Origin: Escherichia coli O127:H6 str. E2348/69
Lineage (GTDB): Bacteria > Pseudomonadota > Gammaproteobacteria > Enterobacterales > Enterobacteriaceae
Direction: 5' to 3' (one strand)
DNA: 64,000 bases
Assembly (NCBI RefSeq): GCF_000026545.1
Contig: NC_011601.1
The notes below the pieces were generated by a model that saw only the letters and a list, made by a program, of their open reading frames with translations, was not told the origin of the DNA and did not search any database. This document shows, piece after piece, positions 1,873 through 17,155 of this stretch (within the stretch, counting starts at the first letter, position 1; each line of letters opens with the position of its first letter). Position numbers and translations under genes: made by a program.

Positions 1873-2637
1873 ATGAAAGATGAACGTCGCCCTATTTGCG
1901 AAGTGGTTGCAGAAAGTATCGAACGGTTAATTATCGACGGCGTACTGAAGGTCGGTCAGCCGCTTCCCTCGGAACGTCGACTGTGTGAAAAGCTCGGCTT
2001 CTCACGCTCCGCACTGCGTGAAGGGCTGACCGTGCTGCGCGGGCGCGGGATTATTGAAACGGCGCAGGGTCGCGATTCTCGTGTCGCACGGCTTAATCGG
2101 GTGCAGGACGCCAGCCCGCTGATCCATCTGTTCAGTACGCAGCCGCGAACGCTGTACGATCTGCTCGACGTTCGCGCATTACTGGAGGGCGAATCGGCAA
2201 GGCTGGCGGCAACGCTGGGAACGCAAGCTGATTTTGTTGTGATAACCCGCTGTTATGAAAAAATGCTCGCCGCCAGTGAGAACAACAAAGAGATTTCGCT
2301 GATCGAACATGCGCAGTTGGATCACGCTTTCCATCTCGCCATTTGTCAGGCTTCTCACAATCAGGTGTTGGTGTTTACACTGCAATCATTGACCGACCTG
2401 ATGTTTAATTCAGTGTTTGCCAGCGTAAATAATCTCTATCATCGACCACAGCAAAAAAAGCAGATCGATCGCCAGCATGCGCGGATCTACAACGCGGTGT
2501 TGCAGCGGCTGCCGCACGTCGCCCAGCGCGCAGCACGCGATCATGTGCGGACCGTGAAAAAGAATCTCCACGATATCGAGCTGGAAGGCCACCATTTGAT
2601 TCGCTCGGCGGTGCCGCTGGAGATGAAGCAGGGGTGA
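1873..2637 (+). CDS. glcC: GntR/FadR-family transcriptional activator of the glc operon
   Basis: ORF 1813..2637; start placed at the internal Met (MKDERRPICEV...) matching the remembered GlcC N-terminus; N-terminal GntR-type HTH. Confidence 0.9.
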   Translation: MKDERRPICEVVAESIERLIIDGVLKVGQPLPSERRLCEKLGFSRSALREGLTVLRGRGIIETAQGRDSRVARLNRVQDASPLIHLFSTQPRTLYDLLDVRALLEGESARLAATLGTQADFVVITRCYEKMLAASENNKEISLIEHAQLDHAFHLAICQASHNQVLVFTLQSLTDLMFNSVFASVNNLYHRPQQKKQIDRQHARIYNAVLQRLPHVAQRAARDHVRTVKKNLHDIELEGHHLIRSAVPLEMKQG

Positions 2638-2643
2638 CTGTCA

Positions 2644-3786
2644 TCAAATCTGCTTTTCATACAATCGGTAACGCTTGTACGGCTCCGCCCCAATGCGTTC
2701 CAGCATGTTATTCATGCCTGTATTGGTTTCGAGGATCCATGACATTTCCAGCGCATCGATCTTCCGACGGGCAAACGGATCGCGTAAGGCTTCAATCAAT
2801 AACAGCGCAATTACCGGGCCGATGCGGCTGAACTGATACTCGTCCCGCACGCCCATCAGCGGTACTCGCGCAGTTCGCACACCGCTGACTTTCAAACGCC
2901 ACAGCAATTTTGCCCAGCCGAAGGGAAAGAGCGATCCGTTCAGATCGGCAATCGCCTCGTTGATGTTCGGCAAGCCGACAATAAACGCGCAGGGTGCAGA
3001 ATCAATCTCAGCGATGTAGATCATATCGTCCGGCACCAGATATTTAAGTTGATCGCCCATGGTCGCGAATTCATGTTCGGTAAACGGCACAAATCCCCAG
3101 TTGTGCTGCCAGCCAGAATTGAAAATCTCACGCAGGATCTGCATCTCTTCGGCAAACCGCTGGCGATTGATGCAGCGAATGGTCACCTTTTTGCGCACCT
3201 GATCCATCAGTTTTTTTAGCGCCGGAGAGAAAGTGAGATCGGTTCGCTGCATCCACCACGCCAGTAAATCAATGCCTTTGTGATAACCCAGTTGTTCAAT
3301 ATGCGCGGCATACCACGGTTTGCCGTGTGGCATCATCGCACAGGGCGGAGTGTCAAAACCTTCAATCAGTAATCCGCTTTCCTGATTGATATTCAGGCTG
3401 AAAGGCCCGCTGATCTTACTTGCACCTTGTGACTTTAACCACGCTTCCGCTGTACCAAACAACGCGGCAAAAACCTGCGGATCATCAATGGCGTCAATCA
3501 TGCCGAAATGACCGGTATCTTCACCGTAACGCTCACGGTGCAAGGTATCTATTTGCGCGGTAATACGCCCAACTATCTGCCCCGCTTTTTTTGCCACCCA
3601 CGCCTGCCAGATGATATGGTCCGTCCCCGGATTCTTCGCAGACAAATGCTCGTTGCGTTCAATGAATAAAGGGGGTATCCAGTTTGGATCGTCGGGATAA
3701 AGTGATGACGGAAAAGCGATAAATGCCTTAAGGTCATTTTTATTAATTACTTTTTCAATTTTAATCATCAGCAGATCGCATTCCAT
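2644..3786 (-). CDS. yghO: YghO, full-length 380-aa form; candidate N-acyltransferase (remembered as a pseudogene in K-12)
   Basis: 380-aa intact ORF beginning MECDLLMIKIEKVINKNDLKAF...; divergent from the adjacent biosynthetic operon. Function inferred from context only; exact start (1st or 2nd Met) uncertain. Confidence 0.75.
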   Translation of the reverse strand: MECDLLMIKIEKVINKNDLKAFIAFPSSLYPDDPNWIPPLFIERNEHLSAKNPGTDHIIWQAWVAKKAGQIVGRITAQIDTLHRERYGEDTGHFGMIDAIDDPQVFAALFGTAEAWLKSQGASKISGPFSLNINQESGLLIEGFDTPPCAMMPHGKPWYAAHIEQLGYHKGIDLLAWWMQRTDLTFSPALKKLMDQVRKKVTIRCINRQRFAEEMQILREIFNSGWQHNWGFVPFTEHEFATMGDQLKYLVPDDMIYIAEIDSAPCAFIVGLPNINEAIADLNGSLFPFGWAKLLWRLKVSGVRTARVPLMGVRDEYQFSRIGPVIALLLIEALRDPFARRKIDALEMSWILETNTGMNNMLERIGAEPYKRYRLYEKQI

Positions 3787-4138
3787 AGTTCTGTGGGTAA
3801 CAAATAATTAACGGTGACAAACAGGTTGCAACAGCAACGAACGGCACCTTAACAATCAACCCAATGAATACAAACGACGAATAAATAGTATTATTAATGA
3901 TTACGATAAGGTCAGAGACTACACAGAAGCGCCTCAATGCCTTTTGTCGATTTAAGGCGACCGGACAAGGCTTCTTCTTAATATATTCATAAATTAAATA
4001 TCATTCACAAAAAAACTCAAACTCATTATTTAAATCAATGTTCATTTTCACACTGATGAAAATACTATCTCATTTATCTTTTATGCCTATATAATCCACC
4101 GCATTATTGTCATTTTATTTTGGATATCCAATTTTTTC
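3787..4138. promoter_or_regulatory. Divergent promoter region between yghO and the FAAL-reductase-ACP-AOS operon
   Basis: 352-bp strongly AT-rich intergenic region with several TATAAT-like hexamers separating divergent genes; no specific operator identified. Confidence 0.4.
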
Positions 4139-5872
4139 GTGGTGTATATGTCTAATAAAATCTTTACGCATTCCCTACCTATGCGCTATGCCGATTTTCC
4201 AACGCTGGTTGATGCTTTGGACTACGCCGCTCTGAGTAGCGCCGGAATGAATTTTTATGACAGACGTTGCCAACTTGAAGATCAACTGGAATATCAGACG
4301 TTAAAAGCGCGTGCCGAAGCTGGTGCGAAGCGGTTGTTATCGCTGAACCTGAAAAAAGGCGATCGCGTGGCGCTGATTGCCGAAACCAGTAGCGGGTTCG
4401 TAGAGGCTTTTTTTTCCTGCCAGTATGCCGGCTTAGTCGCCGTCCCGTTGGCGATTCCAATGGGCGTCGGTCAGCGGGATTCCTGGAGCGCCAAACTGCA
4501 GGGTTTACTGGCAAGTTGCCAGCCCGCAGCCATTATCACTGGTGATGAGTGGTTGCCACTGGTCAATGCCGCGACGCATAACAACAACCCCGAATTACAT
4601 GTTTTAAGCCACGCCTGGTTTAAGGCATTACCGGAAGCCGATGTTGCGCTCCAGCGTCCAGTTCCAAACGATATCGCCTACCTCCAGTACACCTCCGGCA
4701 GCACCCGTTTTCCCCGTGGCGTCATTATCACCCATCACGAAGTGATGGCTAATCTACGTGCTATAAGCCACGATGGCATTAAATTACGCCCTGGCGACCG
4801 CTGCGTCTCCTGGCTGCCTTTCTACCATGATATGGGACTGGTCGGCTTTCTCCTGACCCCCGTCGCCACGCAGCTTTCAGTAGATTATTTGCGCACTCAG
4901 GATTTTGCCATGCGTCCTCTGCAATGGCTTAAATTGATCAGTAAAAATCGCGGCACCGTTTCCGTTGCACCGCCGTTTGGCTATGAATTGTGCCAGCGCC
5001 GCGTGAATGAAAAAGATCTCGCTGAACTGGATCTTTCCTGCTGGCGCGTCGCTGGTATTGGAGCAGAACCGATCTCCGCAGAACAACTCCATCAATTCGC
5101 TGAATGTTTTCGTCAGGTTAACTTTGACGATAAAACTTTCATGCCGTGCTACGGACTGGCAGAAAATGCGCTGGCTGTCAGCTTCTCTGATGAAGCCTGC
5201 GGGGTTGTGGTTAACGAAGTGGATCGCGACATCCTCGAATACCAGGGTAAAGCCGTCGCGCCGGGTGCTGAAACACGCGCCGTATCGACTTTCGTCAACT
5301 GCGGTAAAGCGTTGCCGGAACATGGCATTGAAATCCGCAATGAAGCAGATATACCTGTCGCGGAACGTGTGGTAGGCCATATTTGCATCTCCGGCCCCAG
5401 CCTGATGAGCGGGTACTTTGGCGACCAGGTTTCGCAAGACGAGATTGCCGCGACGGGCTGGTTAGACACCGGCGACCTTGGTTATCTGCTGGACGGTTAT
5501 CTGTATGTCACCGGACGCATTAAAGATCTGATTATTATTCGTGGCCGTAATATCTGGCCGCAGGATATTGAATACATTGCGGAACAGGAACCGGAAATTC
5601 ATTCTGGCGATGCGATTGCTTTTGTTACCGCCCAGGAAAAAATCATTTTGCAGATCCAGTGTCGGATCAGCGACGAAGAACGTCGCGGGCAGCTTATCCA
5701 CGCGCTGGCAGCTCGGATCCAAAGCGAATTTGGCGTTACCGCGGATATCGATCTGTTGCCGCCCCACAGTATTCCCCGAACATCCTCCGGCAAGCCTGCC
5801 CGTGCGGAAGCGAAAAAACGTTATCAGAAGGCTTATGCTGCCAGTCTTCATGTGCAGGAATCCCTGGCATGA
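4139..5872 (+). CDS. AMP-dependent synthetase/ligase; fatty acyl-AMP ligase or acyl-ACP synthetase-like
   Basis: 577-aa ORF with adenylate-forming core motif YTSGSTRFPRGVIITH and downstream GYLYVTGRIKDLIIIRG motif typical of the ANL superfamily; stop overlaps next gene start (ATGA). Confidence 0.85.
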   Translation: MVYMSNKIFTHSLPMRYADFPTLVDALDYAALSSAGMNFYDRRCQLEDQLEYQTLKARAEAGAKRLLSLNLKKGDRVALIAETSSGFVEAFFSCQYAGLVAVPLAIPMGVGQRDSWSAKLQGLLASCQPAAIITGDEWLPLVNAATHNNNPELHVLSHAWFKALPEADVALQRPVPNDIAYLQYTSGSTRFPRGVIITHHEVMANLRAISHDGIKLRPGDRCVSWLPFYHDMGLVGFLLTPVATQLSVDYLRTQDFAMRPLQWLKLISKNRGTVSVAPPFGYELCQRRVNEKDLAELDLSCWRVAGIGAEPISAEQLHQFAECFRQVNFDDKTFMPCYGLAENALAVSFSDEACGVVVNEVDRDILEYQGKAVAPGAETRAVSTFVNCGKALPEHGIEIRNEADIPVAERVVGHICISGPSLMSGYFGDQVSQDEIAATGWLDTGDLGYLLDGYLYVTGRIKDLIIIRGRNIWPQDIEYIAEQEPEIHSGDAIAFVTAQEKIILQIQCRISDEERRGQLIHALAARIQSEFGVTADIDLLPPHSIPRTSSGKPARAEAKKRYQKAYAASLHVQESLA

Positions 5873-6783
5873 ATCAAACTGTCGCGGTGACGGGCGCTAC
5901 CGGGTTTATCGGTAAATATATTATTGATAACCTGCTCGCCCGCGGCTTTCACGTTCGCGCATTAACGCGTACTGCCCGCGCTCACGTCAATGATAATCTC
6001 ATCTGGGTGCGCGGTTCGCTGGAAGATACACATTCGCTTAGCGAACTGGTTGCCGGAGCCAGCGCGGTGGTCCATTGCGCCGGACAAGTGCGCGGACACA
6101 AAGAAGAGATTTTTACCCGCTGTAACGTTGACGGCAGCCTGCGCCTGATGCAAGCGGCAAAAGAGAGCGGCTTTTGCCAACGTTTTCTGTTTATCTCTTC
6201 GCTGGCGGCGCGCCATCCCGAACTCTCCTGGTACGCAAATTCCAAACACGTCGCCGAACAACGACTGATCGCAATGGCTGACGAAATTACGCTGGGCATT
6301 TTTCGCCCGACAGCCGTGTATGGTCCCGGCGATAAAGAGTTAAAACCGCTGTTTGACTGGATGCTGCGCGGCCTGCTGCCACGACTTGGTGCGCCAGATA
6401 CACAACTCTCTTTCCTGCACGTCACCGATTTTGCGCAAGCAGTGGGTCAGTGGTTAAACGCCGAAACTGTACAGACGCAAACCTATGAATTATGCGATGG
6501 CGTCGCTGGCGGCTATGACTGGCAACGCGTACGACAGCTTGCCGCCGAAGCCCGTTGTGGTTCTGTGCGGATGGTTGGCATTCCTCTGCCGCTACTCACC
6601 TGCCTTGCGGATATCAGTACTGCGTTGAGTCGCCTGGCAGGTAAAGAACCTATGCTGACCCGCTCGAAAATTCGTGAATTAACCCACGCCGACTGGTCGG
6701 CAAATAATAACCGTATTTCTGAAGATATTAATTGGTTTCCCGGGATTAGCCTGGAACACGCATTACGCAACGGGCTATTTTGA
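5869..6783 (+). CDS. NAD(P)-dependent epimerase/dehydratase-family oxidoreductase (extended SDR); candidate 3-keto reductase
   Basis: Start chosen at ATG 5869 (MNQTVAVTGATGFIGKYIIDNL...), giving an N-terminal Rossmann GxxGxxG motif; the longer ORF from 5659 would overlap the upstream gene by 200 bp and is rejected. Confidence 0.8.
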   Translation: MNQTVAVTGATGFIGKYIIDNLLARGFHVRALTRTARAHVNDNLIWVRGSLEDTHSLSELVAGASAVVHCAGQVRGHKEEIFTRCNVDGSLRLMQAAKESGFCQRFLFISSLAARHPELSWYANSKHVAEQRLIAMADEITLGIFRPTAVYGPGDKELKPLFDWMLRGLLPRLGAPDTQLSFLHVTDFAQAVGQWLNAETVQTQTYELCDGVAGGYDWQRVRQLAAEARCGSVRMVGIPLPLLTCLADISTALSRLAGKEPMLTRSKIRELTHADWSANNNRISEDINWFPGISLEHALRNGLF

Positions 6784-6814
6784 TTGTCTTGTTTAAAGGT
6801 GTGTTAACGTTTCT

Positions 6815-7063
6815 ATGGTAAATCGTGAAATAGTAATGGATTACATCCTTTCCTGTTTACAGGATTTGGTCGAAAACGGTGTGGAAATTAAGCCCGACAG
6901 CGATCTCGTCAACGATCTTGGCCTGGAGTCGATCAAAGTGATGGATCTCTTAATGATGCTGGAAGACAGATTCGATATTTCCATTCCTATTAATATTCTG
7001 CTGGATGTCAAAACCCCTGCGCAATTAATGGAAACTCTACTTCCATGGCTGGAGAATAAATAA
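6815..7063 (+). CDS. Acyl carrier protein (phosphopantetheine-binding)
   Basis: 82-aa acidic ORF with ACP-like motif DLGLESIKVMDLLMMLEDRF (conserved Ser attachment site); AAAGG ribosome-binding site upstream; stop overlaps next start (TAATG). Confidence 0.8.
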   Translation: MVNREIVMDYILSCLQDLVENGVEIKPDSDLVNDLGLESIKVMDLLMMLEDRFDISIPINILLDVKTPAQLMETLLPWLENK

Positions 7064-8235
7064 TGGGGCTATACGATAAATATGCGCGCCTTGCTGGCGA
7101 GCGCCTGCAATTTAGTGATAACGGGTTAACACCATTTGGCACCTGTATTGATGAAGTATATTCCGCCACCGAAGGCCGGATCGGCAATAAAAAAGTGATT
7201 CTGGCCGGGACCAATAATTATCTCGGTTTAACCTTTAATCATGATGCTATCCGCGAAGGTCAGGCAGCGTTAGCGGCCCAAGGCACTGGCACCACCGGTT
7301 CTCGTATGGCAAACGGCAGTTATGCGCCGCATCTGGCGTTAGAGAAAGAGATTGCCGAGTTTTTCAATCGCCCTACCGCTATCGTTTTTTCAACCGGTTA
7401 TACAGCTAATTTAGGCGTCATCAGCGCACTTGCCGACCATAACGCCGTGGTGTTACTGGATGCCGACAGCCACGCCAGTATTTATGACGCCTGTTCTCTC
7501 GGCGGCGCAGAGATTATTCGTTTCCGCCATAATGACGTCAACGATCTGGAACGGCGCATGGTCCGCCTCGGTGAACGGGCGAAAGAGGCGATTATTATCG
7601 TTGAAGGCATCTACAGTATGCTCGGTGACGTTGCGCCGCTGGCAGAAATTGTTGATATCAAACGTCGTCTCGGTGGTTATTTGATTGTCGATGAAGCACA
7701 TTCGTTTGGCGTGTTAGGCGTAACAGGCCGCGGACTGGTTGAAGCCGTTGGCGTTGAAGACGACGTGGATATTATCGTCGGCACCTTCAGTAAAAGTTTG
7801 GCTTCCATTGGTGGTTTTGCCGTGGGTTCAGAAGCGATGGAAGTGCTGCGCTACGGCAGCCGCCCGTATATTTTTACCGCCTCTCCTTCTCCGTCCTGCA
7901 TTGCGACCGTGCGCTCGTCGTTAAGAACCATTGCCACACAACCAGAGTTGCGGCAAAAACTGATGGATAACGCCAACCATCTGTATGACGGTCTGCAAAA
8001 ACTGGGTTACGAGTTAAGTTCACATATTAGCCCGGTAGTGCCAGTAATAATCGGTTCGAAAGAGGAAGGTTTACGCATCTGGCGCGAGCTTATTTCGCTG
8101 GGCGTTTATGTGAATCTTATCCTGCCACCTGCCGCGCCTGCAGGCATCACGCTGCTGCGCTGTAGCGTAAACGCTGCCCACAGTCGTGAGCAAATCGATG
8201 CCATCATTCAGGCATTTGCTACTCTGAAGCAGTAA
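7063..8235 (+). CDS. PLP-dependent alpha-oxoamine synthase (serine palmitoyltransferase / 8-amino-7-oxononanoate synthase family)
   Basis: 390-aa ORF with class-II aminotransferase features: HSFG motif and PLP-lysine motif GTFSKSLASIGGF. A paralogue of BioF/Kbl, but co-operonic with an ACP and an acyl-AMP ligase. Confidence 0.85.
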   Translation: MGLYDKYARLAGERLQFSDNGLTPFGTCIDEVYSATEGRIGNKKVILAGTNNYLGLTFNHDAIREGQAALAAQGTGTTGSRMANGSYAPHLALEKEIAEFFNRPTAIVFSTGYTANLGVISALADHNAVVLLDADSHASIYDACSLGGAEIIRFRHNDVNDLERRMVRLGERAKEAIIIVEGIYSMLGDVAPLAEIVDIKRRLGGYLIVDEAHSFGVLGVTGRGLVEAVGVEDDVDIIVGTFSKSLASIGGFAVGSEAMEVLRYGSRPYIFTASPSPSCIATVRSSLRTIATQPELRQKLMDNANHLYDGLQKLGYELSSHISPVVPVIIGSKEEGLRIWRELISLGVYVNLILPPAAPAGITLLRCSVNAAHSREQIDAIIQAFATLKQ

Positions 8236-8241
8236 TGTGAA

Positions 8242-8272
8242 CCCGCCGTGGTGTTGCGCCACGGCGGGTTTA
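8242..8272. terminator. Bidirectional intrinsic terminator between convergent operons
   Basis: Perfect inverted repeat CCCGCCGTGG-(7 nt)-CCACGGCGGG followed by TTTA, between the plus-strand AOS gene and the minus-strand LptG-like gene. Confidence 0.7.
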
Positions 8273-9349
8273 ATGTTGTCTGTCATGCCAATACACCAGG
8301 CTCAACGCCACCAGCACAAACGCTACCGGTAAACCGAGCGCGGTAACAGGTGCGCTCAACGCAAATAGCAATCCCAGATTGACCATGATTTGATAGCTGA
8401 TCCAGGTGAGTAAACCAACGATGACCCCTACAGCGAGACGGCTACCCATCCTAGGCGAGCGCGGGGCACTAAAGGTAAACGGCACAGCCAGCAAAATCAT
8501 CGCCAGAGTCAAGATGGGTTGCCCCAGTTTTTCCCACAGTGCAAGGCGGTATTCGCTGCTGGGTTGCCCGGTTTCCTGCAAATAATGGATGTAATGATTA
8601 AGCTGACGGACAGAAAAAGTATTTCCCGGCATCGATAACTCTTCAAGATTCATACTGGTGAAGGTCGATTGCCAGGCAAGATAATCAGATGTTTCCTGCG
8701 TTTCTTTGCCATTCAGCCATTTTTTATGATTCACACCATGCAGGATCCACGTTTTGTCATCTTCAATGGTGGCACTGCGCGCATAAATGTAGGATTCGAG
8801 CGAGAGATCATCGCGGTAATGAAATATCTCCACGTCCACCGGCTGGCCCTGCTCGTTCAGCGATTTCACCGTCACAAATTCATTACCACGCCTGGCCCAC
8901 AGCATATTGCCGGTAATGTCATCGTCCTCCCCCAACGCAGTGGCAGTCGATTTGATTTGCAGCGCCTGTTGCTGCAATGGCGACGCCACCCACTCATCTA
9001 TCGCGCCTAATGAAACAGTCCACAATATCCCGGCAACCAGCGCCACCAGTGCAATACGGAAGATAGAAAACCCCGTGCTGCGAATGGCGGTAAGCTCACT
9101 GTTTTTCGATAACTGCCCCAGGCCGACAATCCCTCCCAATAAGGCGATAAACGGCGAAAGTTCGACCAGTGTGCGCGGTAAGGTCATCAGCACCACCAGC
9201 ACCGCCTGAGTCCAGCGATAACCACCCGGGCTGACATCATCCAGTTCGTTAATCAGGTTGAAGGTGGTAAAAAGCGGCAGCAATAGCCCTGCGGCGGCGG
9301 CAAAACCGAGAAAGAGATGACGGATTAAATAGCGACTGAAAACATTCAT
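8270..9349 (-). CDS. LptG-like permease (YjgP/YjgQ family)
   Basis: Multi-pass membrane protein; start placed at Met of MNVFSRYLIRHLFLGF..., which overlaps the upstream gene stop (ATGA). Resembles LptF/LptG N-termini and topology, with a central periplasmic domain. Confidence 0.75.
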   Translation of the reverse strand: MNVFSRYLIRHLFLGFAAAAGLLLPLFTTFNLINELDDVSPGGYRWTQAVLVVLMTLPRTLVELSPFIALLGGIVGLGQLSKNSELTAIRSTGFSIFRIALVALVAGILWTVSLGAIDEWVASPLQQQALQIKSTATALGEDDDITGNMLWARRGNEFVTVKSLNEQGQPVDVEIFHYRDDLSLESYIYARSATIEDDKTWILHGVNHKKWLNGKETQETSDYLAWQSTFTSMNLEELSMPGNTFSVRQLNHYIHYLQETGQPSSEYRLALWEKLGQPILTLAMILLAVPFTFSAPRSPRMGSRLAVGVIVGLLTWISYQIMVNLGLLFALSAPVTALGLPVAFVLVALSLVYWHDRQH

Positions 9350-10416
9350 CGGGAAAATTTCTGCAGCAAAGAGAAGTCGCGTGCGACCAACATCAGCAGG
9401 CCCATTAGCATGAGTCCGGGTACTAACCACAAACCAGGAATGAGGGGAATCGCGCCGTTAGCCACCAGCGTACGGCAGACGTCGCCGCCATAAAAAATGG
9501 CAACAAACAGCAACGTCAGTGGCAATAACGTTGAAAATCGCCCTTGCCGCGGTTTTACCCGACTTAATGAAATGGCCAGCAGCGCCATCAACAATGCTGT
9601 CAGGCCACGGCTTTGTCGCCATTGCAGTTCGGCATGATCGGCAGGAAAGGCGGAGCGCGCCAGCTCCGTGACCGATTTTGCTTTGCGTTTGACGTTAGGG
9701 CTTTGATCCAGCGGATTCAGATGTAATTGCAGATTACGGTAGATCTGTTCGTTGTCGTCACGCCCCTGATGATCGAGAAGATAGGCGGTCCCGTTATGCA
9801 ACATAACGGTCGGTTTCTCAGGTGATGGGTCAACCACATCAACCGAACGGGCGCGGAAAATGCGGGTTCGATTAGCAGTAGAAGTATAAATCAGCGCGTC
9901 AGTCAGGCGATTATTATCCTGATCAACCGTCTGCGAAAGGATCATTCGTCCGTTATCGTTAGTGTTAAATTGCTTTGCCCGCAACTGGCGAACATCCAGC
10001 TCCGACTGTGACTGTTGCTCCAGTTGATAAATCTGCGCATAAGCCCACGGACGACCATACATCGACAGAAGGGTGACAAAAATACTTAGCGGTATCGCCA
10101 GATAAAGAACGGCTTTGTACAAGCGTCCCGGACTGCCCCCCGCCGCAGAGATAGCGGTAATTTCCGAGTCGGTATACATCTGCCCTAGCGTCACGCCAAC
10201 TGACACATACAGTCCAACAGGTAACAACATCTCCAGTGCAATCAGCACTTTGTAGAAAACGATATCCAGCACAACATCAAGAGCTAATGTCCCATTTGCC
10301 GCTTCGGTCAGATAACGCTGTGCGGAGTAGCTGGCGAAAATAAAGATCAGAAAACCGACGATAATCAGCACCAGACGGCGCGTACCACGCATGATGTAGT
10401 GTTCAACCAGCTTCAT
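9346..10416 (-). CDS. LptF-like permease (YjgP/YjgQ family)
   Basis: 356-aa ORF MKLVEHYIMRGTRRLVLIIVGFLIF...; hydrophobic N- and C-terminal segments with a central soluble domain, as in LptF/LptG; translationally coupled to the downstream permease. Confidence 0.75.
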   Translation of the reverse strand: MKLVEHYIMRGTRRLVLIIVGFLIFIFASYSAQRYLTEAANGTLALDVVLDIVFYKVLIALEMLLPVGLYVSVGVTLGQMYTDSEITAISAAGGSPGRLYKAVLYLAIPLSIFVTLLSMYGRPWAYAQIYQLEQQSQSELDVRQLRAKQFNTNDNGRMILSQTVDQDNNRLTDALIYTSTANRTRIFRARSVDVVDPSPEKPTVMLHNGTAYLLDHQGRDDNEQIYRNLQLHLNPLDQSPNVKRKAKSVTELARSAFPADHAELQWRQSRGLTALLMALLAISLSRVKPRQGRFSTLLPLTLLFVAIFYGGDVCRTLVANGAIPLIPGLWLVPGLMLMGLLMLVARDFSLLQKFSR

Positions 10417-10445
10417 CTCACTAACGCCCTCAATCCTTTGAATTT

Positions 10446-11009
10446 TTATTCATTGATCAGCTTCTGCGCCAGCGCAATGACATGATCTACCTCTTCCGGC
10501 GTCAGGCTGCCGTCCTTTGCCCACTGAATTTGCCCGGTTTTATTCAGCACCAGAATGGTTGAACTCTGCTCCTGCAAGTGCCAGGCAACGCGTCCCTGTC
10601 CATTGCCGTCAATAACGAATTGCGCCCATGGATAGCGGCGTTTATTTTTTTCGATTTTGCCAACGACAAAATAGCCGGTACCAAAGATGGCATCATCAGT
10701 GTTCACAATGGTGGTGGGCTGAAAACGATCCTGCGGAAAGTTTGCCGCTTCAACTGCTTTAATTAACAGTGAGTTCTTTTTCTTCGCCGACTTACGCCCG
10801 GCGATATACTGAATAATGCGAACTTTTCCTGCCAATTGGGTGCTGTTCCACTTTTGGTAGTGAATTTCGTCGTCGCTATTCCGAAGCAGCTCGCCGCCTT
10901 CCTGGATATAAACGGGGGTAACCGTTTTGCCAGTGACGAAATTGTGTGCCTGCACACCCGGGGCTAAGAGCATGATAATCAGCGCAATAATCAAACGAGA
11001 TGACATCAT
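10446..11009 (-). CDS. Secreted periplasmic protein, YtfJ-like
   Basis: 187-aa ORF with N-terminal signal peptide (MMSSRLIIALIIMLLAPGVQA); family assignment is from memory of YtfJ-type proteins, not a search. Confidence 0.5.
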   Translation of the reverse strand: MMSSRLIIALIIMLLAPGVQAHNFVTGKTVTPVYIQEGGELLRNSDDEIHYQKWNSTQLAGKVRIIQYIAGRKSAKKKNSLLIKAVEAANFPQDRFQPTTIVNTDDAIFGTGYFVVGKIEKNKRRYPWAQFVIDGNGQGRVAWHLQEQSSTILVLNKTGQIQWAKDGSLTPEEVDHVIALAQKLINE

Positions 11010-11017
11010 TGCTCCGG

Positions 11018-11842
11018 TTATAGCGGAAAACGCGAAATCAGCAGTTCTAAGCGCTGGCGAATATCGCTATCCAGCGCCATCGGTGCATCATACGACTGGC
11101 GGTTTTCCATATCATCCGCCACCATGTCGTCGTGTTTATCCCCCATCAGGCCATTAATGGCGGCGAGGAAGCGGGAAATCTGTAACGCCTCTTTATTTTC
11201 AGGATCAAGCGATCTTAAGGTGTCGTAATAAGAAACCTGCTGGCTGATGATTTTTCGCACATCATGAAATTCCCTGCCAGTTAGTTGCGGTTTAGCAATA
11301 ATCTCTTTCAGGATGTACATTTGCTTCTGGCGGTAGGCGATAAAACCGTTCACGGTTTCTAACTGGCTATGGCGCAATGAATAGTTCACCAGCCACCAGA
11401 CAGGGGAGCTCAAATAAACACGTAACAGGTTACCGTAAAACGACACAATATTTTTCTTACCGTTACGAAAGCCATCCTGAAAATGCCCAAGAAAAACGGT
11501 CGTTTTGCCGAATAAAAATCCAGCCTGATGCTTCTTTAAATACAGCCGTTGCGCAAAACGCAGATGCTTGTAGCGCGCTCGCATGTATTTAAACTGTTTG
11601 CGCTCGTCTGTCGTCAGCTCATCGCCTTTCGCCTGTTTGCGGATTAAACGCAGTAACTCCTGACGATTAACACCATCCAGCCAGAATTTCAGGCATAACG
11701 CGTAATTATCATGGATGATTTCGGTGGTACAACTTAGTGCGATAGTCGGCGGCAAACTGACCTGTGCATCAACAACATCATCTTCTTCAATCGCAACAAA
11801 TAGACGCTCGCTCGCCTCAAGCGGGAAATATTTTCTCATCAT
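11018..11842 (-). CDS. Hypothetical basic protein, operon member of unknown function
   Basis: 274-aa ORF with no signal peptide or obvious transmembrane segments; start overlaps the yghQ stop by 1 nt; no recognisable catalytic motif. Confidence 0.6.
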   Translation of the reverse strand: MMRKYFPLEASERLFVAIEEDDVVDAQVSLPPTIALSCTTEIIHDNYALCLKFWLDGVNRQELLRLIRKQAKGDELTTDERKQFKYMRARYKHLRFAQRLYLKKHQAGFLFGKTTVFLGHFQDGFRNGKKNIVSFYGNLLRVYLSSPVWWLVNYSLRHSQLETVNGFIAYRQKQMYILKEIIAKPQLTGREFHDVRKIISQQVSYYDTLRSLDPENKEALQISRFLAAINGLMGDKHDDMVADDMENRQSYDAPMALDSDIRQRLELLISRFPL

Positions 11843-13191
11843 CAGGATTTCTCTCCGGTTGAGTTATAAAGCAAGGAATGGCGCTGAAAAAATGCCTTTA
11901 AGGTCGGAATTAGCGAGAGCACCACATCCAGACATTGCCCACCGAAGTAAGCAAATGCAGCCCCCAGCACGCCAAACAGATGACAGAACATGAACAGCAA
12001 TACGATGTAGCCGATTGAGGCGATGGTTTGCGCCACGAGAAAAGCGCGCTGTTTTCCCGCCATCAATAGCAATGACTCCTGTGGGAAGCCCAGCATCGAA
12101 ATCACAATTGCGCCCAGCATCACCTGAATCAGGTCATACGCTTCGAGATACTTAACGCCAAACACCAGCGAAATGAGCGGCTTGCCGACGATCAACACCG
12201 CGAGCGCCACCAGAATACCGATTCCGCCCGCCAGTAAACCGGACTTCACGCCTAACAACCACGGTCTGGTGGTGCGTGGATCTAAACGCATCACCTCTGG
12301 ATAAAAACTTTTGCCCAGTAAACCCGCTGGCGTTCCGGCGGCATCGAAGAATGTCATGGCGATTTTAAATAACCCGACAGCAGCGGGTCCTAACACGATC
12401 CCCACCAACACTGTGCTGCACGAGTTACGCGCCGACCAGATGGAGTGGGCAATGTTGGTTGACCAGACAAAACTCCACGCGCCTTTAATGTGTCGGGCAG
12501 ACTCAAACAGATTCAATTTGAAGGCGTTATGGATATTTCTGCGGCGTAATTCGCGCGCGGCAAACCACCAGTACATGGTGCCGCCAACCAGATTCGACAC
12601 GTACCAGGCAATAACAAAACCCGCAAAACCAAAGTCAAAATACCAGGCTACGACGCTCCCCGCTGCGCGCAGAAAAGGTTTCGTCGCCTGCTGTACAGCA
12701 ATCAAATCAAAGCGATCTACCGCACGCAGAATGCCGGTCGGCGTGGAGGAAGCCATTGAAGGAATGAGCGTGCAATAGAGCGCCGCCAGCCAAAAGCTTT
12801 GGTCATCCAGACCTAATGAATGGGAAAGGAATGGCAGTAAGGCAATGCCGCCGACAATCGCCACCGCGCCGCTGACGATATCCAGCGAGAAGGAAAATGA
12901 GACAACATTGCGAAATTGCTGCGGATTATTGTTGGTCAAGGCCGGCGTTCCGTACTGGACCACCAGTTGCCATGTCTGAAACTTAATAAAATCGCTGATC
13001 GATTTGGCGTACGATTGCACAATTACCAGTACGCCAAACATGGCGGGCGTCATCCCTTTACCGGCACACGAGAGCGCCAACAGCCCCAGCAAAGCGCTCA
13101 CAACATTACTGGAGCCTAACCAGGCGCTATTGCGAATAATGGTGCGAAACGCGCCATCTGCAAACCAATGTTTGATGTTTAAACCCGCCAA
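11842..13191 (-). CDS. yghQ: Polysaccharide/lipid flippase-like inner membrane protein (MOP superfamily), full-length YghQ
   Basis: 449-aa polytopic membrane ORF; the K-12 YghQ is remembered as shorter (N-terminally truncated), and this copy appears to be the intact form. Confidence 0.8.
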   Translation of the reverse strand: MAGLNIKHWFADGAFRTIIRNSAWLGSSNVVSALLGLLALSCAGKGMTPAMFGVLVIVQSYAKSISDFIKFQTWQLVVQYGTPALTNNNPQQFRNVVSFSFSLDIVSGAVAIVGGIALLPFLSHSLGLDDQSFWLAALYCTLIPSMASSTPTGILRAVDRFDLIAVQQATKPFLRAAGSVVAWYFDFGFAGFVIAWYVSNLVGGTMYWWFAARELRRRNIHNAFKLNLFESARHIKGAWSFVWSTNIAHSIWSARNSCSTVLVGIVLGPAAVGLFKIAMTFFDAAGTPAGLLGKSFYPEVMRLDPRTTRPWLLGVKSGLLAGGIGILVALAVLIVGKPLISLVFGVKYLEAYDLIQVMLGAIVISMLGFPQESLLLMAGKQRAFLVAQTIASIGYIVLLFMFCHLFGVLGAAFAYFGGQCLDVVLSLIPTLKAFFQRHSLLYNSTGEKS

Positions 13192-13236
13192 TTCAGCCTG
13201 ACCTTATCGTTGATAGTAAAAAGTATCCCGCCAGCC

Positions 13237-13995
13237 TTAAGTTAAACTTCGGCGGTCAGAAACGATGGCAACCAGAGAAACCGCCTTCTGTGCCTGTTCC
13301 AGCACCTCGCTGTAAGGCGCTCTGGAATCAATCTCAAGAATTTTTGTGCCGTTATAGCCAATCGTCGACATGACGCCGATTTTGTCCTGCAGCTCGGCAT
13401 AGTCATGGTCAGGCTTGCGGGAGATGGCAGTATCAATATCAATCCCCAAGCGAATGATTAATTCAGGACGGTATTGCGCCATTTGTTGGTATAAGCGCCG
13501 TTCGCGCTGCGCCAGAAACATGCTGATTTTCCCGGTCGCACGTTCGACGCCGATCCCCGGTCCGTCATAATAAAAGCCCGAAATTTCAGCCTGCGGGAAG
13601 CGATCGCTGACCACCAGAACGCCACTTTGCGCCAGTCGCTGAACCTTGCGCAGATTCGCCATTCTTCGCAGCGAGAAGCAGTACATAATCACCGCCGCCC
13701 ATAGCGCCGGAGATTTGGTTTTCATGCTTTGGGTTTTCGAGGATTTGGCCGCCAGTCGCCGTTCCAGCCAGACGCCAACCAACGGCAACCGTTTGATTTT
13801 GTCGCCGTCTTCGCCTGAGAGCAGCCCCAGATAGCGGCGCTCGGTTTGCCAGTGTTGTTGCAGCGATTTCACCAGGTCAGTGGTCAGTGTGGATTTACCG
13901 GTGCCATCACACCCGACCACCGCAATCAGCCCCGGAATGTAGTTGGGCTGCGGCGCGGTTGTACTCTTAACAGTTTGTGTTTGTAGTGCATCCAT
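13237..13995 (-). CDS. yghR: P-loop NTPase, kinase-like (YghR)
   Basis: 252-aa ORF; Walker A GCDGTGKST plus VVSDRFPQ (DRY/F-like motif of nucleoside/nucleotide-kinase-fold proteins); paralogue of the next two genes. Confidence 0.85.
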   Translation of the reverse strand: MDALQTQTVKSTTAPQPNYIPGLIAVVGCDGTGKSTLTTDLVKSLQQHWQTERRYLGLLSGEDGDKIKRLPLVGVWLERRLAAKSSKTQSMKTKSPALWAAVIMYCFSLRRMANLRKVQRLAQSGVLVVSDRFPQAEISGFYYDGPGIGVERATGKISMFLAQRERRLYQQMAQYRPELIIRLGIDIDTAISRKPDHDYAELQDKIGVMSTIGYNGTKILEIDSRAPYSEVLEQAQKAVSLVAIVSDRRSLT

Positions 13996-14026
13996 TCGTT
14001 AAATCATCCCCTATCCATTTTGGTGA

Positions 14027-14740
14027 TCAGGAAAGCGCGGCGTGAATTGCGCGTAGTGACGCTTGCAGAATTTCATCGGCTGGTTGCCGACCATCCAGTT
14101 CAAGGATCTTTGCGCCATTGAATGTCAGTTGCGGCGTAACGGCGATTTTTTCCTGTAACGCTGCCAGTTGGTGGTCAGGTTTACGCGCAAACGCGGTTTG
14201 TTCATCAATGCCAAGACGAATCAACAATACGGGCAAATAAGACGCCATCCATTGGTACAGCTTCAGCTCGCGCTGCCTTAACATTTTTATCCAACCGTTA
14301 CCGCCCGTGGTTTTTGCCAATTGCGGGCCATCAAAGCGAAAACCCGGCACTTCAACCTGCGGGTAGCGGTCGGTGATGAGCAGATAGCCTTGCTGGCTTT
14401 TACACAACATTTTGCGAAACTTGTACGCCCGCCAGCAGGAAAGCAGATAGATAACCAGCGCAGTAATATTGCCAGGCGGTGTTAAGGGCTTTTCGTGCAC
14501 ATGTGCCGCTTTACTTCGCAAATAACGCCCAAAAGGTGCGCCAATAACAGGGAGCTGTGAAATCCATTCGCCAATTCGCCCGGACGATTGCCCGAGATAA
14601 ATGTGTTCTGTTGGCATTCTTGATGCCAGTTCATTTACCAGGCTTGCCGTGAGGGTCGATTTACCTGAACCATCACATCCTACAATGGCAATAACACGCA
14701 CTGGCGTGGAATTAATTATTGACATATTACGTTGATTCAC
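14027..14740 (-). CDS. yghS: P-loop NTPase, kinase-like (YghS)
   Basis: 237-aa ORF; Walker A GCDGSGKST and LITDRYPQ motif; paralogue of YghR and YghT. Confidence 0.85.
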   Translation of the reverse strand: MNQRNMSIINSTPVRVIAIVGCDGSGKSTLTASLVNELASRMPTEHIYLGQSSGRIGEWISQLPVIGAPFGRYLRSKAAHVHEKPLTPPGNITALVIYLLSCWRAYKFRKMLCKSQQGYLLITDRYPQVEVPGFRFDGPQLAKTTGGNGWIKMLRQRELKLYQWMASYLPVLLIRLGIDEQTAFARKPDHQLAALQEKIAVTPQLTFNGAKILELDGRQPADEILQASLRAIHAALS

Positions 14741-14914
14741 GAAAAACCCGGCAGCAAATAATGTATTGAATATTACGTGGTCCGTGCTCAGAATATCCGT
14801 TCAACCTTATTGTGACAATGGTTAATTGTGACATTGACCTGAATTACGCTTTCATCAAAAACATATTAACCAAATAAATATTTTGGATGGACATTTAAAT
14901 TTAAGGATATATTC

Positions 14915-15607
14915 ATGCAGTCAATAATACCTCCATTAATTGCCGTTATTGGTAGCGATGGTTCAGGCAAGTCAACGGTGTGTGAACATCTTATTACCGT
15001 TGTCGAAAAATATGGTGCTGCCGAAAGGGTTCATTTAGGAAAACAGGCCGGAAATGTCGGTCGTGCAGTGACAAAATTACCGTTGATGGGAAAATCCTTA
15101 CATAAAACAATTGAACGAAATCAGGTAAAAATAGCAAAAAAATTGCCGGGACCAGTTCCGGCGCTGGTAATTACAGCGTTTGTCGCCCGCCGCTTACTGC
15201 GCTTTCGTCATATGCTTGCCTGTCGTCGTCGCGGGTTAATTGTTTTAACCGACCGTTATCCGCAGGAACAGATTCCTGGCGCTTATGATGGTACGGTGTT
15301 CCCGCCTAACGTTGAAGGTGGTCGTTTTGTCTCATGGCTGGCAAGTCAGGAACGTAAAGCATTTCACTGGATGGCGAGCCATAAGCCCGATCTGGTCATC
15401 AAACTCAATGTCGATCTGGACGTAGCCTGCGCGCGTAAGCCTGACCACAAAAGAGAATCGCTGGAAAGGAAGATAGCAATAACGCCACAGTTAACCTTTG
15501 GAGGCGCGCAACTGGTTGATATCGATGCCAATCAACCGCTGGAACAAGTGCTGGTTGATGCGGAAAAAGCGATTACGGATTTTATGACCGCGCGTGGTTA
15601 TCACTAG
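14915..15607 (+). CDS. yghT: P-loop NTPase, kinase-like (YghT)
   Basis: 230-aa ORF; Walker [10 protein letters not shown] and VLTDRYPQ motif; divergently transcribed from yghS. Confidence 0.85.
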
Positions 15608-15655
15608 TCAAAAATGGAAATGCCCGATCGCCAGGACCGGGCATTTTCAGGAAGG

Positions 15656-17155
15656 TTAAATCAACTGCAATGCTATCCAGTACAACCCACCAGAAAGAAA
15701 AATCGCCGCCGGTAAAGTAAATACCCACGCCATCAGGATGCTGGTTACCGTTTTACGCTGTAACCCACCGCCGTCCACCACCATCGTCCCTGCTACTGCA
15801 GACGAGAGTACGTGTGTTGTGGAGACGGGCATCCCAATATAACTGGCAAGGCCGATAGACACTGCCGCCGTCATCTGTGCCGCCATGCCTTGCGCATACG
15901 TCATGCCGCGCTTACCAATCTTCTCACCGATGGTCATCGCTACACGACGCCAGCCAATCATGGTGCCGATGCCGAGCGCCAGTGCTACCGCCATGATGAT
16001 CCATACCGGTGCGTACTCAATGGTGCTTAACATATCGCTGCGCAGTTTTTTCAGCAGGTTCTGGTCTTCTTTACTGACGCCTGGCAGTTTCGCCAGCTTC
16101 GCGGAGGTATCAGAGATGCACAGCATAATGCGGCGCAGCTGGCTGCGCTGACTCACGCTTAACGGCTCGTAACTTTCCATATTGCCTGGCAGCATCGTTT
16201 TAACGCGCGCAATCGCATCAAAGGTATTTGCCGGATGACAGTGAAACTCTGTTACTTGCGTGCCATCAGTCGATGTCGCAGGCAATGGAGGTTCCATCGT
16301 AATCAACTTCTGCGGCAGTTCAGGATGCTGTTGCAGGTAGTGTTCGAAGTTGGTGACGGCATCGCGGGTACGGGTAATTTCATAGCCGGACGCATTCATA
16401 TTGACGACAAACCCGGCGGGAGCAATCCCCACCAGCACCAGCATCACCAGACCAATTCCTTTCTGCCCGTCGTTCGCGCCGTGCGAAAACGCCACGCCCG
16501 CAGCGGAAACAATGAGGGCAATACGCGTCCAGAATGGCGGCTTACGTTTGCCTTTTTTCTTTTGGCGATCTTCCGGAATGCGGTGAATACGGTCACGCTT
16601 TTTCGTCCCGCTCCAGTAGCGACGCAGCAGAAAAATCAGCCCCCCCGCAATCACCAGCCCCACGATGGGGGAGACAATGAGTGAAGAGAAAATCTTGGTG
16701 ACTTCGCGCAGGTTTAACGCATCCATCACCGACGAACCATTTAACAGCGCGTTGGTTAAACCGATGCCGATAATCGCACCAATCAAAGTGTGCGAACTGG
16801 AGGCCGGTAAACCAAAGAACCACGTTCCCAGATTCCAGATAATCGCCGCCAGCAGCATGGAAAAGACCATCGCCAGACCGTGAGTTGACCCCATATTCAG
16901 CAACAAATCGGTTGGCAACATATGGACGATGGCATAGGCAACGCTAAGCCCGCCAAGCAATACGCCAAAAAAGTTAAAAAATGCCGCCATGACTACAGCA
17001 AGCTGTGGTTGCATGGCACGGGTATAAATAACGGTTGCCACCGCATTCGCTGTGTCATGAAAACCATTGATTGCTTCATAGAACAACACAAATGCCAGAG
17101 CAAGTAATAACAAAAGCCCCGTATATATATCAAGGCCAACAAATAAATTTAGCAT
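15656..17155 (-). CDS. pitB: Low-affinity inorganic phosphate transporter PitB
   Basis: 499-aa polytopic ORF recognised as E. coli PitB (PiT family). Confidence 0.9.

Follow-up and report, generated by a model that had tools for sequence, protein, structure and literature searches.

A candidate sphingolipid synthesis, head-group and export island, yghO to yghT, in Escherichia coli E2348/69

Escherichia coli is the textbook model of the Gram-negative membrane and is usually described as sphingolipid-free. We analysed a 64,000-nucleotide stretch of the chromosome of E. coli O127:H6 str. E2348/69 (NC_011601.1), hereafter the window, and in it the 13 genes from yghO to yghT (window positions 2644-15607), which we read, with a probability of about 0.8, as the E. 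coli version of a proteobacterial sphingolipid locus combining ceramide synthesis, head-group chemistry and export. The sphingolipid-free picture was derived from K-12, in which the insertion sequence IS5 stands in place of most of the locus. About three-quarters of complete E. coli genomes have an intact, selectively maintained ceramide pathway, as predicted here, together with its own Lpt-like exporter; carriers include enteropathogenic (EPEC), uropathogenic (UPEC) and enterohaemorrhagic (EHEC) relatives and the workhorse strain BL21. Should the lipid be made in the host, the outer-membrane composition of pathogenic E. coli, its polymyxin and antimicrobial-peptide targets and its signalling to the host would have to be rethought, the last because bacterial sphingolipids are bioactive.

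The closest described system is the locus CC_1152-CC_1168 of Caulobacter crescentus. Its acpR-spt, aasR, cerR and bCerS set is genetically required for dihydroceramide (PMC9386255; 2024 PLoS Pathogens paper), and LptC2, LptF2, LptG2 and a putative flippase have been named in it (2024 PLoS Pathogens paper). The E. coli island is alike in its five-gene dihydroceramide set, with acpR immediately 5' of spt, in its pair of LptF/LptG paralogues, in its putative flippase (CC_1166 in Caulobacter) and in having no LptB gene in the locus. Unlike Caulobacter, it is without CpgB (of the LCB5/diacylglycerol-kinase type), CpgA, CpgC, CpgD and LptC2; none of the 13 island products gave a DAGK_cat/LCB5-type match in Pfam or NCBIfam. 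It carries instead three thymidylate-kinase-like paralogues, a protein predicted to have a CHAD fold and a YtfJ-family protein. With a kinase/CHAD set in place of CpgB-type genes, the gene content suggests that the head group is probably not the ceramide (di)phosphoglycerate of Caulobacter.

Part of the E. coli pathway has been described before. ECD_02850-ECD_02854 of E. coli BL21(DE3) is the same locus in another strain, and its AasR, AcpR and Spt biochemistry transfers directly: AcpR (ECD_02853) carries 4'-phosphopantetheine, AasR (ECD_02851) acylates E. coli AcpR, and Spt (ECD_02854) prefers acyl-AcpR and forms 3-oxo-sphinganine from serine (Padilla-Gomez et al. 2022, PMC9386255). Figure 9 of that study presents ECD_02850 (yghO/aca) to ECD_02854 as the five-gene dihydroceramide set (yghO/aca, aasR, epi, acpR, spt), which it finds clustered in Caulobacter and E. 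coli BL21 only; the study treats these five genes and not the minus-strand operon or yghT. The ceramide core of the island is already published and is not new. An initial annotation of the window had stated that none of the island genes has an assigned function, which does not hold, as AasR, AcpR and Spt of E. coli B are characterised and RefSeq already gives the name spt to the alpha-oxoamine synthase gene. The same annotation had looked to a long-chain amino-lipid on induced expression, and heterologous production of 3-oxo-sphinganine with the E. coli enzymes is on record (PMC9386255). What is left of value lies in the native product and its inducing conditions, in the module of kinase trio and CHAD-fold protein, and in the correction of database names.

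Two further systems bear on the remaining genes. PPK3, an archaeal polyphosphate kinase of Sulfolobus acidocaldarius, is made up of two adjacent thymidylate-kinase paralogues (Saci_2019/2020), whose operon also encodes a CHAD protein (Saci_2021) (Hofmann et al. 2026, PMC12995831). The island likewise has adjacent thymidylate-kinase-superfamily paralogues and a stand-alone gene for a predicted CHAD fold, and natural fusions suggest a hetero-oligomer here as well. It differs from PPK3 in having three paralogues rather than two, in lying within a lipid synthesis and export locus with a MOP flippase, and in that none of the usual polyphosphate neighbours (ppx, SixA, pst) occurs in the island. We use PPK3 as a working analogy in architecture, not as a family assignment for YghR, YghS and YghT. 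The second system is the LptB2FG extractor, from which the LptF2/LptG2 pair differs in being encoded without LptB or LptC genes and inside a sphingolipid locus.

The ceramide core

Both the list of open reading frames and the RefSeq annotation confirmed 13 contiguous genes at positions 2644-15607, in the tightly packed units that the initial annotation had described. The interval corresponds to positions 773450-786413 of NZ_CP059840.2 (100% identical), where the RefSeq genes match one by one. On the plus strand, aasR (4148..5872), for a fatty acyl-AMP ligase and dedicated acyl-AcpR synthetase, is followed by cerR/epi (5869..6783), for an NAD(P)-dependent short-chain dehydrogenase/reductase (SDR) of the epimerase/dehydratase family and predicted 3-keto reductase, by acpR (6815..7063), for a specialised acyl carrier protein, and by spt (7063..8235), for the serine palmitoyltransferase (SPT), an alpha-oxoamine synthase dependent on pyridoxal 5'-phosphate (PLP). 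The acpR gene thus lies directly 5' of spt in one operon, with aasR and cerR further upstream, and the same holds in other spt-containing loci. Overlaps of 4 nt join aasR to cerR and lptF2 to lptG2, overlaps of 1 nt join acpR to spt and yghQ to the gene for a 274-residue protein, and the remaining gaps within units measure 8-45 bp.

With 597 bits, the alpha-oxoamine synthase clears the cutoff (500) of NF047599, the NCBIfam equivalog for Spt, and it falls below the cutoffs of bioF (334 against 426), Kbl (298 against 460) and the CqsA-type autoinducer synthase model NF005526 (225 against 428). The enzyme is thus Spt-like rather than BioF- or Kbl-like, as had been proposed. Among solved structures the SPTs of Sphingomonas come first (377 bits for S. 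paucimobilis 2jg2), followed by Sphingobacterium SPT (264), with lower scores for cysteate acyltransferase (208), Kbl (206), BioF (180-187) and CqsA (126). In the alignment with 2jg2, the motifs SHASIYD, VDEAHS, GTFSKS and LLRCS fall in matching columns; we take the roles of the aligned active-site residues (the PLP lysine and the His/Asp/His/Arg motifs) to be those generally ascribed to the S. paucimobilis enzyme. Within E. coli, Spt clusters share 97-99% identity with the window protein. The best 120 matches of the homology search were close enterobacterial relatives only, including proteins of E. albertii, Pseudocitrobacter, Citrobacter amalonaticus, Hafnia and Shimwellia.

The other products of the operon agree with this assignment to different degrees. 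AasR scores 867 bits on the fatty acyl-AMP ligase model NF006624 of NCBIfam (cutoff 600), and AcpR matches acyl carrier protein families, its LGLES motif holding the serine for 4'-phosphopantetheine. CerR shows weak similarity to extended-SDR models (HpnA, OleD), every one of them under its cutoff; its translation contains GATGFIG and YANSK (YxxxK), and it is listed elsewhere as a homologue of CC_1164 (PMC9386255).

The solitary and divergent yghO gene (2644..3786, minus strand) encodes a protein with no match in Pfam or NCBIfam. Because the sequence models are silent, YghO and the 274-residue protein discussed below were resolved by structure prediction only. The AlphaFold 2 model of YghO, of moderate quality (pLDDT 70), matches three structures with a tandem GNAT (4zm6, 5kf1, 2wpw), with E-values from 1e-14 to 1e-12 and a TMq of 0.48-0.58, in keeping with the GNAT-like acyltransferase fold that had been suggested for it. 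It shares 44% identity over 375 columns with D5VLY1 of Caulobacter segnis (TM 0.80), and AFDB50 holds full-length homologues at 40-61% identity. In 27 of the kinase-anchored loci described below, a yghO homologue adjoins the spt operon, and homologues that are 48-52% identical occur there in other taxa. The gene has been listed as 'aca', an N-acyltransferase and homologue of CC_1154 (PMC9386255). From the predicted fold and these neighbourhoods we strongly infer that YghO is a tandem-GNAT N-acyltransferase homologous to bacterial ceramide synthase (bCerS/aca), and N-acylation of a long-chain base is its predicted activity. Taken together, we consider it highly probable that aasR-cerR-acpR-spt and the divergent yghO constitute the rhodobacterial dihydroceramide pathway.

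Two side observations concern the surroundings of yghO. E. coli DgkA phosphorylates ceramide in vitro, and in Serratia liquefaciens a prokaryotic diacylglycerol kinase gene (Pfam DAGK_prokar; locus L003, 11354-11716) lies directly 3' of yghO, an adjacency that may be meaningful. A family of 119-residue reading frames, without an NCBIfam name, is present in 14 loci, and one copy (L016) lies just downstream of yghO.

Kinase paralogues, the 274-residue protein and the head group

Three genes encode P-loop kinase-like paralogues: yghR (13237..13995) and yghS (14027..14740, at the head of the minus-strand operon), both on the minus strand, and yghT (14915..15607, plus strand), divergent from yghS. 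YghR and YghS are 41% identical, YghT is 34-36% identical to the other two, and 55 columns are invariant over all three. The shared motifs are Walker A (GCDGTGKST in YghR), DR(Y/F)PQ (DRFPQ in YghR) and RKPDH; the Walker A lysine and the DR motif are kept in each protein. On the dTMP kinase model TIGR00041 (cutoff 83.25 bits) YghR, YghS and YghT score 30.9, 25.1 and 24.6 bits, respectively. Judged by their sequences, the three make up a distinct family of thymidylate-kinase-like P-loop kinases. RefSeq is not justified in naming yghS and yghT 'dTMP kinase', because about 25 bits stand against a cutoff of 83 and the family profile reaches solved thymidylate kinases at E 1e-8.

Two other assignments were tried and set aside. 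The kinases might have been the missing ABC ATPases of LptF2G2; however, their similarity to ATP-binding cassette (ABC) proteins is confined to the Walker A stretch, and this reading was rejected because the remaining sequence aligns with thymidylate kinases and bears DR(Y/F)PQ. Membership of the PPK3 family is not backed by sequence either, as the matches to 2plr/5h70 are weaker than those to canonical thymidylate kinases.

When 1.8 billion representative proteins were searched with a profile, 137 kinase-family clusters came out at E < 1e-30. We fetched 79 loci by kinase-family anchor, one genome per species, of which 50 were full-length, and mapped the 13 island proteins on them (loci and proteins are cited by L and P handles where necessary). 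The spt gene was present in the fetched DNA of 50 of the 79 loci and, within 10 kb, in 39 of the 50 full-length ones. Exactly three kinase genes were found in 44 of the 50 full-length loci, and yghS with yghR immediately downstream recurs in nearly every locus that has both. In Serratia the kinases directly adjoin spt. Outside the Enterobacterales, spt-linked kinase loci, whose gene order varies, were found in Rhodanobacter, Luteibacter, Carnimonas, Sulfuritalea, Gallionellaceae, Rhodocyclaceae and Methylotenera, a number of the sources being metagenome-assembled genomes.

Natural fusions and recurrent partners add to this linkage. A YghS-YghR fusion (P0241) lies inside an spt locus, a YghT-like domain is fused to a YghR/S-like domain in P0242 and P0244, and a MOP flippase is fused to a kinase in P0337 (978 aa, Wzx-like). 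Kinase loci outside the Enterobacterales recurrently carry two PAP2 lipid phosphatases (LpxE-like and LpxF/PgpB-like), and further recurrent partners there are an OlsC/LpxO-like lipid hydroxylase, an LmtA-like lipid-phosphate O-methyltransferase and an LptA-like protein. The spt linkage, the fusions and the lipid-acting partners therefore tie the kinase trio to sphingolipid loci and to lipid-phosphate chemistry. The initial annotation had proposed head-group modification by the three kinases; we infer such a role from the comparative evidence and hold it at even odds that YghR, YghS and YghT act in the head-group chemistry of the island lipid. The module of kinase trio and CHAD-fold protein, which accompanies spt in diverse Proteobacteria, is unlike the one bacterial route to a ceramide phosphate that has been characterised, and it suggests a putative phosphate-rich head group made in another way than by CpgB. 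In the literature searched we found no description of a YghRST-spt module, and papers mentioning yghQ, yghR, yghS or yghT gave no functional information.

Related kinase domains also occur in other architectures. A large family of proteins of about 500 residues (P0289, P0293, P0299 and many more) has a YghRST-like kinase domain at the C-terminus, preceded by another domain; this N-terminal domain looks nucleotidyltransferase-like, with a weak Pfam NTP_transf_5 match for P0337. Another relative of the kinase domain (P0371) is fused to a GT4 glycosyltransferase.

The gene at 11018..11842 (minus strand), between the YtfJ-family gene and yghQ, encodes the 274-residue protein. The initial annotation had listed it as an unknown; the reading frame stands and the label does not, since a CHAD-like fold (conserved-histidine alpha-helical domain) is predicted here. 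The protein matched nothing in Pfam or NCBIfam, and its family profile found nothing in the PDB even at E 10. In the predicted structure two four-helix bundles with CHAD topology can be recognised, and on that model we class the protein as a divergent CHAD-fold protein, at 9-17% sequence identity to CHAD domains (PF05235; 6qv5, 3e0s, 6rn5; E. coli YgiF). We found no mention of this identity in the literature searched. CHAD domains bind polyphosphate (bioRxiv 10.1101/567040), and the conserved basic and histidine columns of the family, with an isoelectric point of 9.1, are consistent with putative polyphosphate binding by the 274-residue protein. Two Luteibacter loci (L042, 18016-19716; L043, 17776-19844) have a tandem pair of 274-residue homologues downstream of a yghQ homologue. 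An apparent fusion of YghQ with the 274-residue protein in Sphingobium (L072) was rejected as an artefact of open reading frame extension, as the two matches lie in different frames.

The same evidence can be read as a neighbouring system that has nothing to do with ceramide, that is, a PPK3-like polyphosphate kinase or a kinase set for an undecaprenyl-linked glycan or polysaccharide, with its own CHAD protein and flippase. Thymidylate-kinase paralogues beside a CHAD protein are the PPK3 pattern, relatives of the kinase domain are fused to a GT4 glycosyltransferase and to Wzx-like flippases, K-12-type strains keep the module but not the ceramide genes, and spt is absent within 10 kb in loci of Sphingobium, Acetobacter, Halioglobus and Lysobacterales. 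However, the kinases lie at most 10 kb from spt in the 39 full-length loci counted above, which span Gamma- and Betaproteobacteria and in which they often adjoin spt or yghO; the YghS-YghR fusion is itself part of an spt locus; the island is without ppx, SixA and pst; and the recurrent extra partners (PAP2, LmtA-like, OlsC/LpxO-like) act on lipids. The taxa without spt in reach, moreover, include classic sphingolipid producers with dispersed genes (PMC9386255). We therefore consider an independent neighbouring system improbable and retain the assignment of the module to the sphingolipid locus.

Presumed export genes and a working model

The minus-strand operon ends in lptF2 (9346..10416) and lptG2 (8270..9349), whose products pass the LptF and LptG models (320 bits on TIGR04407, cutoff 230; 305 bits on TIGR04408, cutoff 240) and can be aligned over their full length with the LptF and LptG chains of solved structures. 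Against the E. coli proteins they score only 95 bits (LptF2 with 6mhu_F, below the scores of Vibrio and Pseudomonas LptF) and 146 bits (LptG2 with 6mhu_G). To judge from these scores, LptF2 and LptG2 are old, divergent paralogues and not the organism's copies for export of lipopolysaccharide (LPS), and the RefSeq name 'LPS export ABC transporter permease LptF/LptG' on the island genes is probably an over-annotation. LptG2 would be the permease half of a presumed sphingolipid extractor. No LptB or LptC is encoded among the 13 products.

Upstream in the same operon, the YtfJ-family gene (10446..11009, minus strand) encodes a periplasmic protein that scores 212 bits on TIGR01626 (cutoff 151) and has a hydrophobic, signal-peptide-like N-terminus (residues 1-26). 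The gene was found in 34 loci, all in Enterobacterales, and lies between the gene for the 274-residue protein and lptF2 where the arrangement is kept; its product is a possible Enterobacterales-specific periplasmic partner of LptF2G2. The membrane protein YghQ (11842..13191, minus strand) has several transmembrane-like segments and matches Pfam Polysacc_synt PF01943 (E 4e-9) and PF13440 (E 7e-8). It is only a distant member of the MOP/Wzx-type flippases, because it scores 33 bits on NCBIfam NF007773 (cutoff 273). Distant MOP homologues (24-29% identical) directly adjoin spt in beta- and gammaproteobacterial loci.

The idea that LptFG-like proteins export the product gains support from Caulobacter, where the LptF/LptG paralogues of the sphingolipid locus can be deleted only when anionic sphingolipid synthesis is absent, and where LptF2 and LptG2 form a complex and bind LptB (Uchendu, Isom, Klein, bioRxiv April 2026); Figure 2B of the same preprint draws the locus of E. 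coli UTI89. By analogy with Caulobacter, we lean towards a model in which YghQ would flip the lipid and LptF2G2 would extract it. Five loci of Pseudomonadales and of Halioglobus type (L051, L056, L062, L068, L076) were found to carry the kinase trio, a distant MOP flippase and distant LptF2/G2 (27-34% identical), with no spt within 10 kb; four of them also have an LptA-like periplasmic protein. No duplicated LptA was found in sphingolipid loci according to the Caulobacter preprint (Uchendu, Isom, Klein).

Assembled into one scheme, AasR loads a free fatty acid on AcpR and Spt condenses acyl-AcpR with serine to 3-oxo-sphinganine, two steps shown in the literature for E. coli enzymes. N-acylation by YghO and reduction of the 3-keto group by CerR, on whose order publications differ, would then give dihydroceramide on the cytoplasmic side of the inner membrane. 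A basic hetero-oligomer of YghS, YghR and YghT, together with the CHAD-fold protein, would then add one or more phosphates to the lipid or to a head-group precursor, with ATP or possibly polyphosphate as phosphate source, and this route would replace the diacylglycerol-kinase-type CpgB route of Caulobacter. The MOP-type YghQ would flip the modified lipid, and LptF2/LptG2, powered by the cell's single LptB, would pull it out of the inner membrane and send it towards the outer one. A pyro-, oligo- or polyphosphate head group, or one built from polyphosphate, on a ceramide-anchored lipid of E. coli and many other Proteobacteria is a tentative extension of this scheme that we consider unlikely. 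Equally doubtful is the installation of such a head group by a hetero-oligomeric YghS/R/T kinase with a CHAD partner, PPK3-like in architecture, followed by MOP flipping and LptB2-LptF2G2 export.

The possibility that the plus-strand operon makes another amino-lipid or signal (a capnine-type sulfonolipid from cysteate, a CAI-1-like alpha-hydroxyketone or a non-serine product) takes its appeal from the relatedness of all alpha-oxoamine synthases, but we give it hardly any weight, as the scores with cysteate acyltransferase (208 bits), CqsA (126) and NF005526 (225) are far under those of Spt itself (377 in the PDB, 597 on NF047599) and under their own family cutoffs, the E. coli B enzyme yields 3-oxo-sphinganine from serine and acyl-AcpR (PMC9386255), and the gene set matches that required for Caulobacter dihydroceramide.

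A number of observations weigh against the reading of the island as a sphingolipid locus. E. coli strains with empty vector or Spt alone gave no 3-oxo-sphinganine-like spot on thin-layer chromatography (PMC9386255). BL21(DE3), the stated expression host of that study, has the chromosomal locus, so that expression or output was below detection in the laboratory and the locus appears silent or almost silent in ordinary culture. The literature searched also contains no account of a sphingolipid made by wild-type E. coli, and the published biochemistry on the island covers AasR, AcpR and Spt, not the other genes. For the kinases, 29 of the 79 loci have no spt in the fetched DNA, many of them being short contigs or from taxa with dispersed genes. 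Such loci include those of Sphingobium, Novosphingobium and Acetobacter; both sphingomonads and acetic acid bacteria produce sphingolipids, and the pathway genes of Sphingomonadaceae are dispersed (PMC9386255). The resemblance of the kinases to any characterised kinase is remote: with the family profile, solved thymidylate kinases come up at E 1e-8 or weaker, and the match to the PPK3 homologue 2plr/5h70 (E 6e-4) is limited to the P-loop. Their substrate could be a soluble precursor instead of a lipid. Pfam CHAD (PF05235) misses the E. coli 274-residue protein and finds one of 30 family members, at E 0.089.

Conservation, loss and genomic setting

Of 5426 complete E. coli genomes, 4050 have a coverage of at least 80% for the whole interval and 4067 (75%) for the aasR-spt operon, which leaves about 25% without the operon. 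We compared the island with E. whittamii and found ratios of nonsynonymous to synonymous substitution rates (dN/dS) of 0.03-0.15 in all 12 comparable genes. These include the genes for unknowns. The comparable genes are thus under purifying selection, and the island is being maintained and not decaying. The same 13 families occur, reordered and at other chromosomal sites, in Serratia, Pluralibacter, Hafnia, Erwinia, Pantoea and others; in Pluralibacter the block of flippase, 274-residue protein, YtfJ-like protein and LptF2G2 adjoins spt.

K-12-type strains have lost most of this island. In E. coli C439 (L002, locus positions 3670-4650) IS5 replaces window positions of about 3790-12100, so that aasR, cerR, acpR, spt, lptG2, lptF2, the genes for the YtfJ-like and 274-residue proteins and the start of yghQ are missing, and yghO, a truncated yghQ, yghR, yghS and yghT are kept as orphans. 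In total, nine genes are lost or truncated at this site.

Such losses raise the possibility that the island is a cryptic evolutionary remnant, disused in E. coli. It is lost or truncated in K-12-type and some other lineages, about a quarter of complete genomes are without the biosynthetic operon, and the E. coli expression strains gave no sphingolipid-like spot when the full gene set was not over-expressed (PMC9386255). This account is nonetheless very improbable in our view: all 13 reading frames are intact, with none flagged as a pseudogene in the RefSeq annotation, the dN/dS values are low in every comparable gene, and the full set is retained over many Enterobacterales genera despite rearrangement. 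Apparent non-expression in culture would fit the presence of a candidate silenced regulatory region, the AT-rich intergenic stretch between yghO and aasR (3787..4147, about 360 bp, local GC about 0.43-0.46), which presumably holds the promoters of the divergent units.

Few other features stand out in the non-coding DNA. A bidirectional terminator-like hairpin (8238..8272; 16-bp stem with 10 GC pairs, 3-nt loop) parts the convergent spt and lptG2 genes. A second terminator-like hairpin with a 12-bp stem (15618-15646) is found within the 48 bp that separate yghT from pitB, which converge on each other. Counts of promoter and terminator patterns were not above those in shuffled sequence, the two long hairpins alone being noteworthy. 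An Rfam scan of positions 2000-16000, including the long yghO-aasR leader, returned no RNA element, and the anti-phage defence models of PADLOC gave P-loop noise only on the island. The island is flanked by glcC (glcDC) on one side and by pitB-gss on the other.

Two of the fetched loci are anomalous in their source. Those titled Martelella alba (L023) and Pseudomonas sp. (L015, a metagenome-assembled genome) encode island proteins 50-78% identical to those of E. coli, in an enterobacterial-type gene order that is unexpected for an alphaproteobacterium or a pseudomonad, and this could reflect horizontal transfer, contamination or mis-binning.

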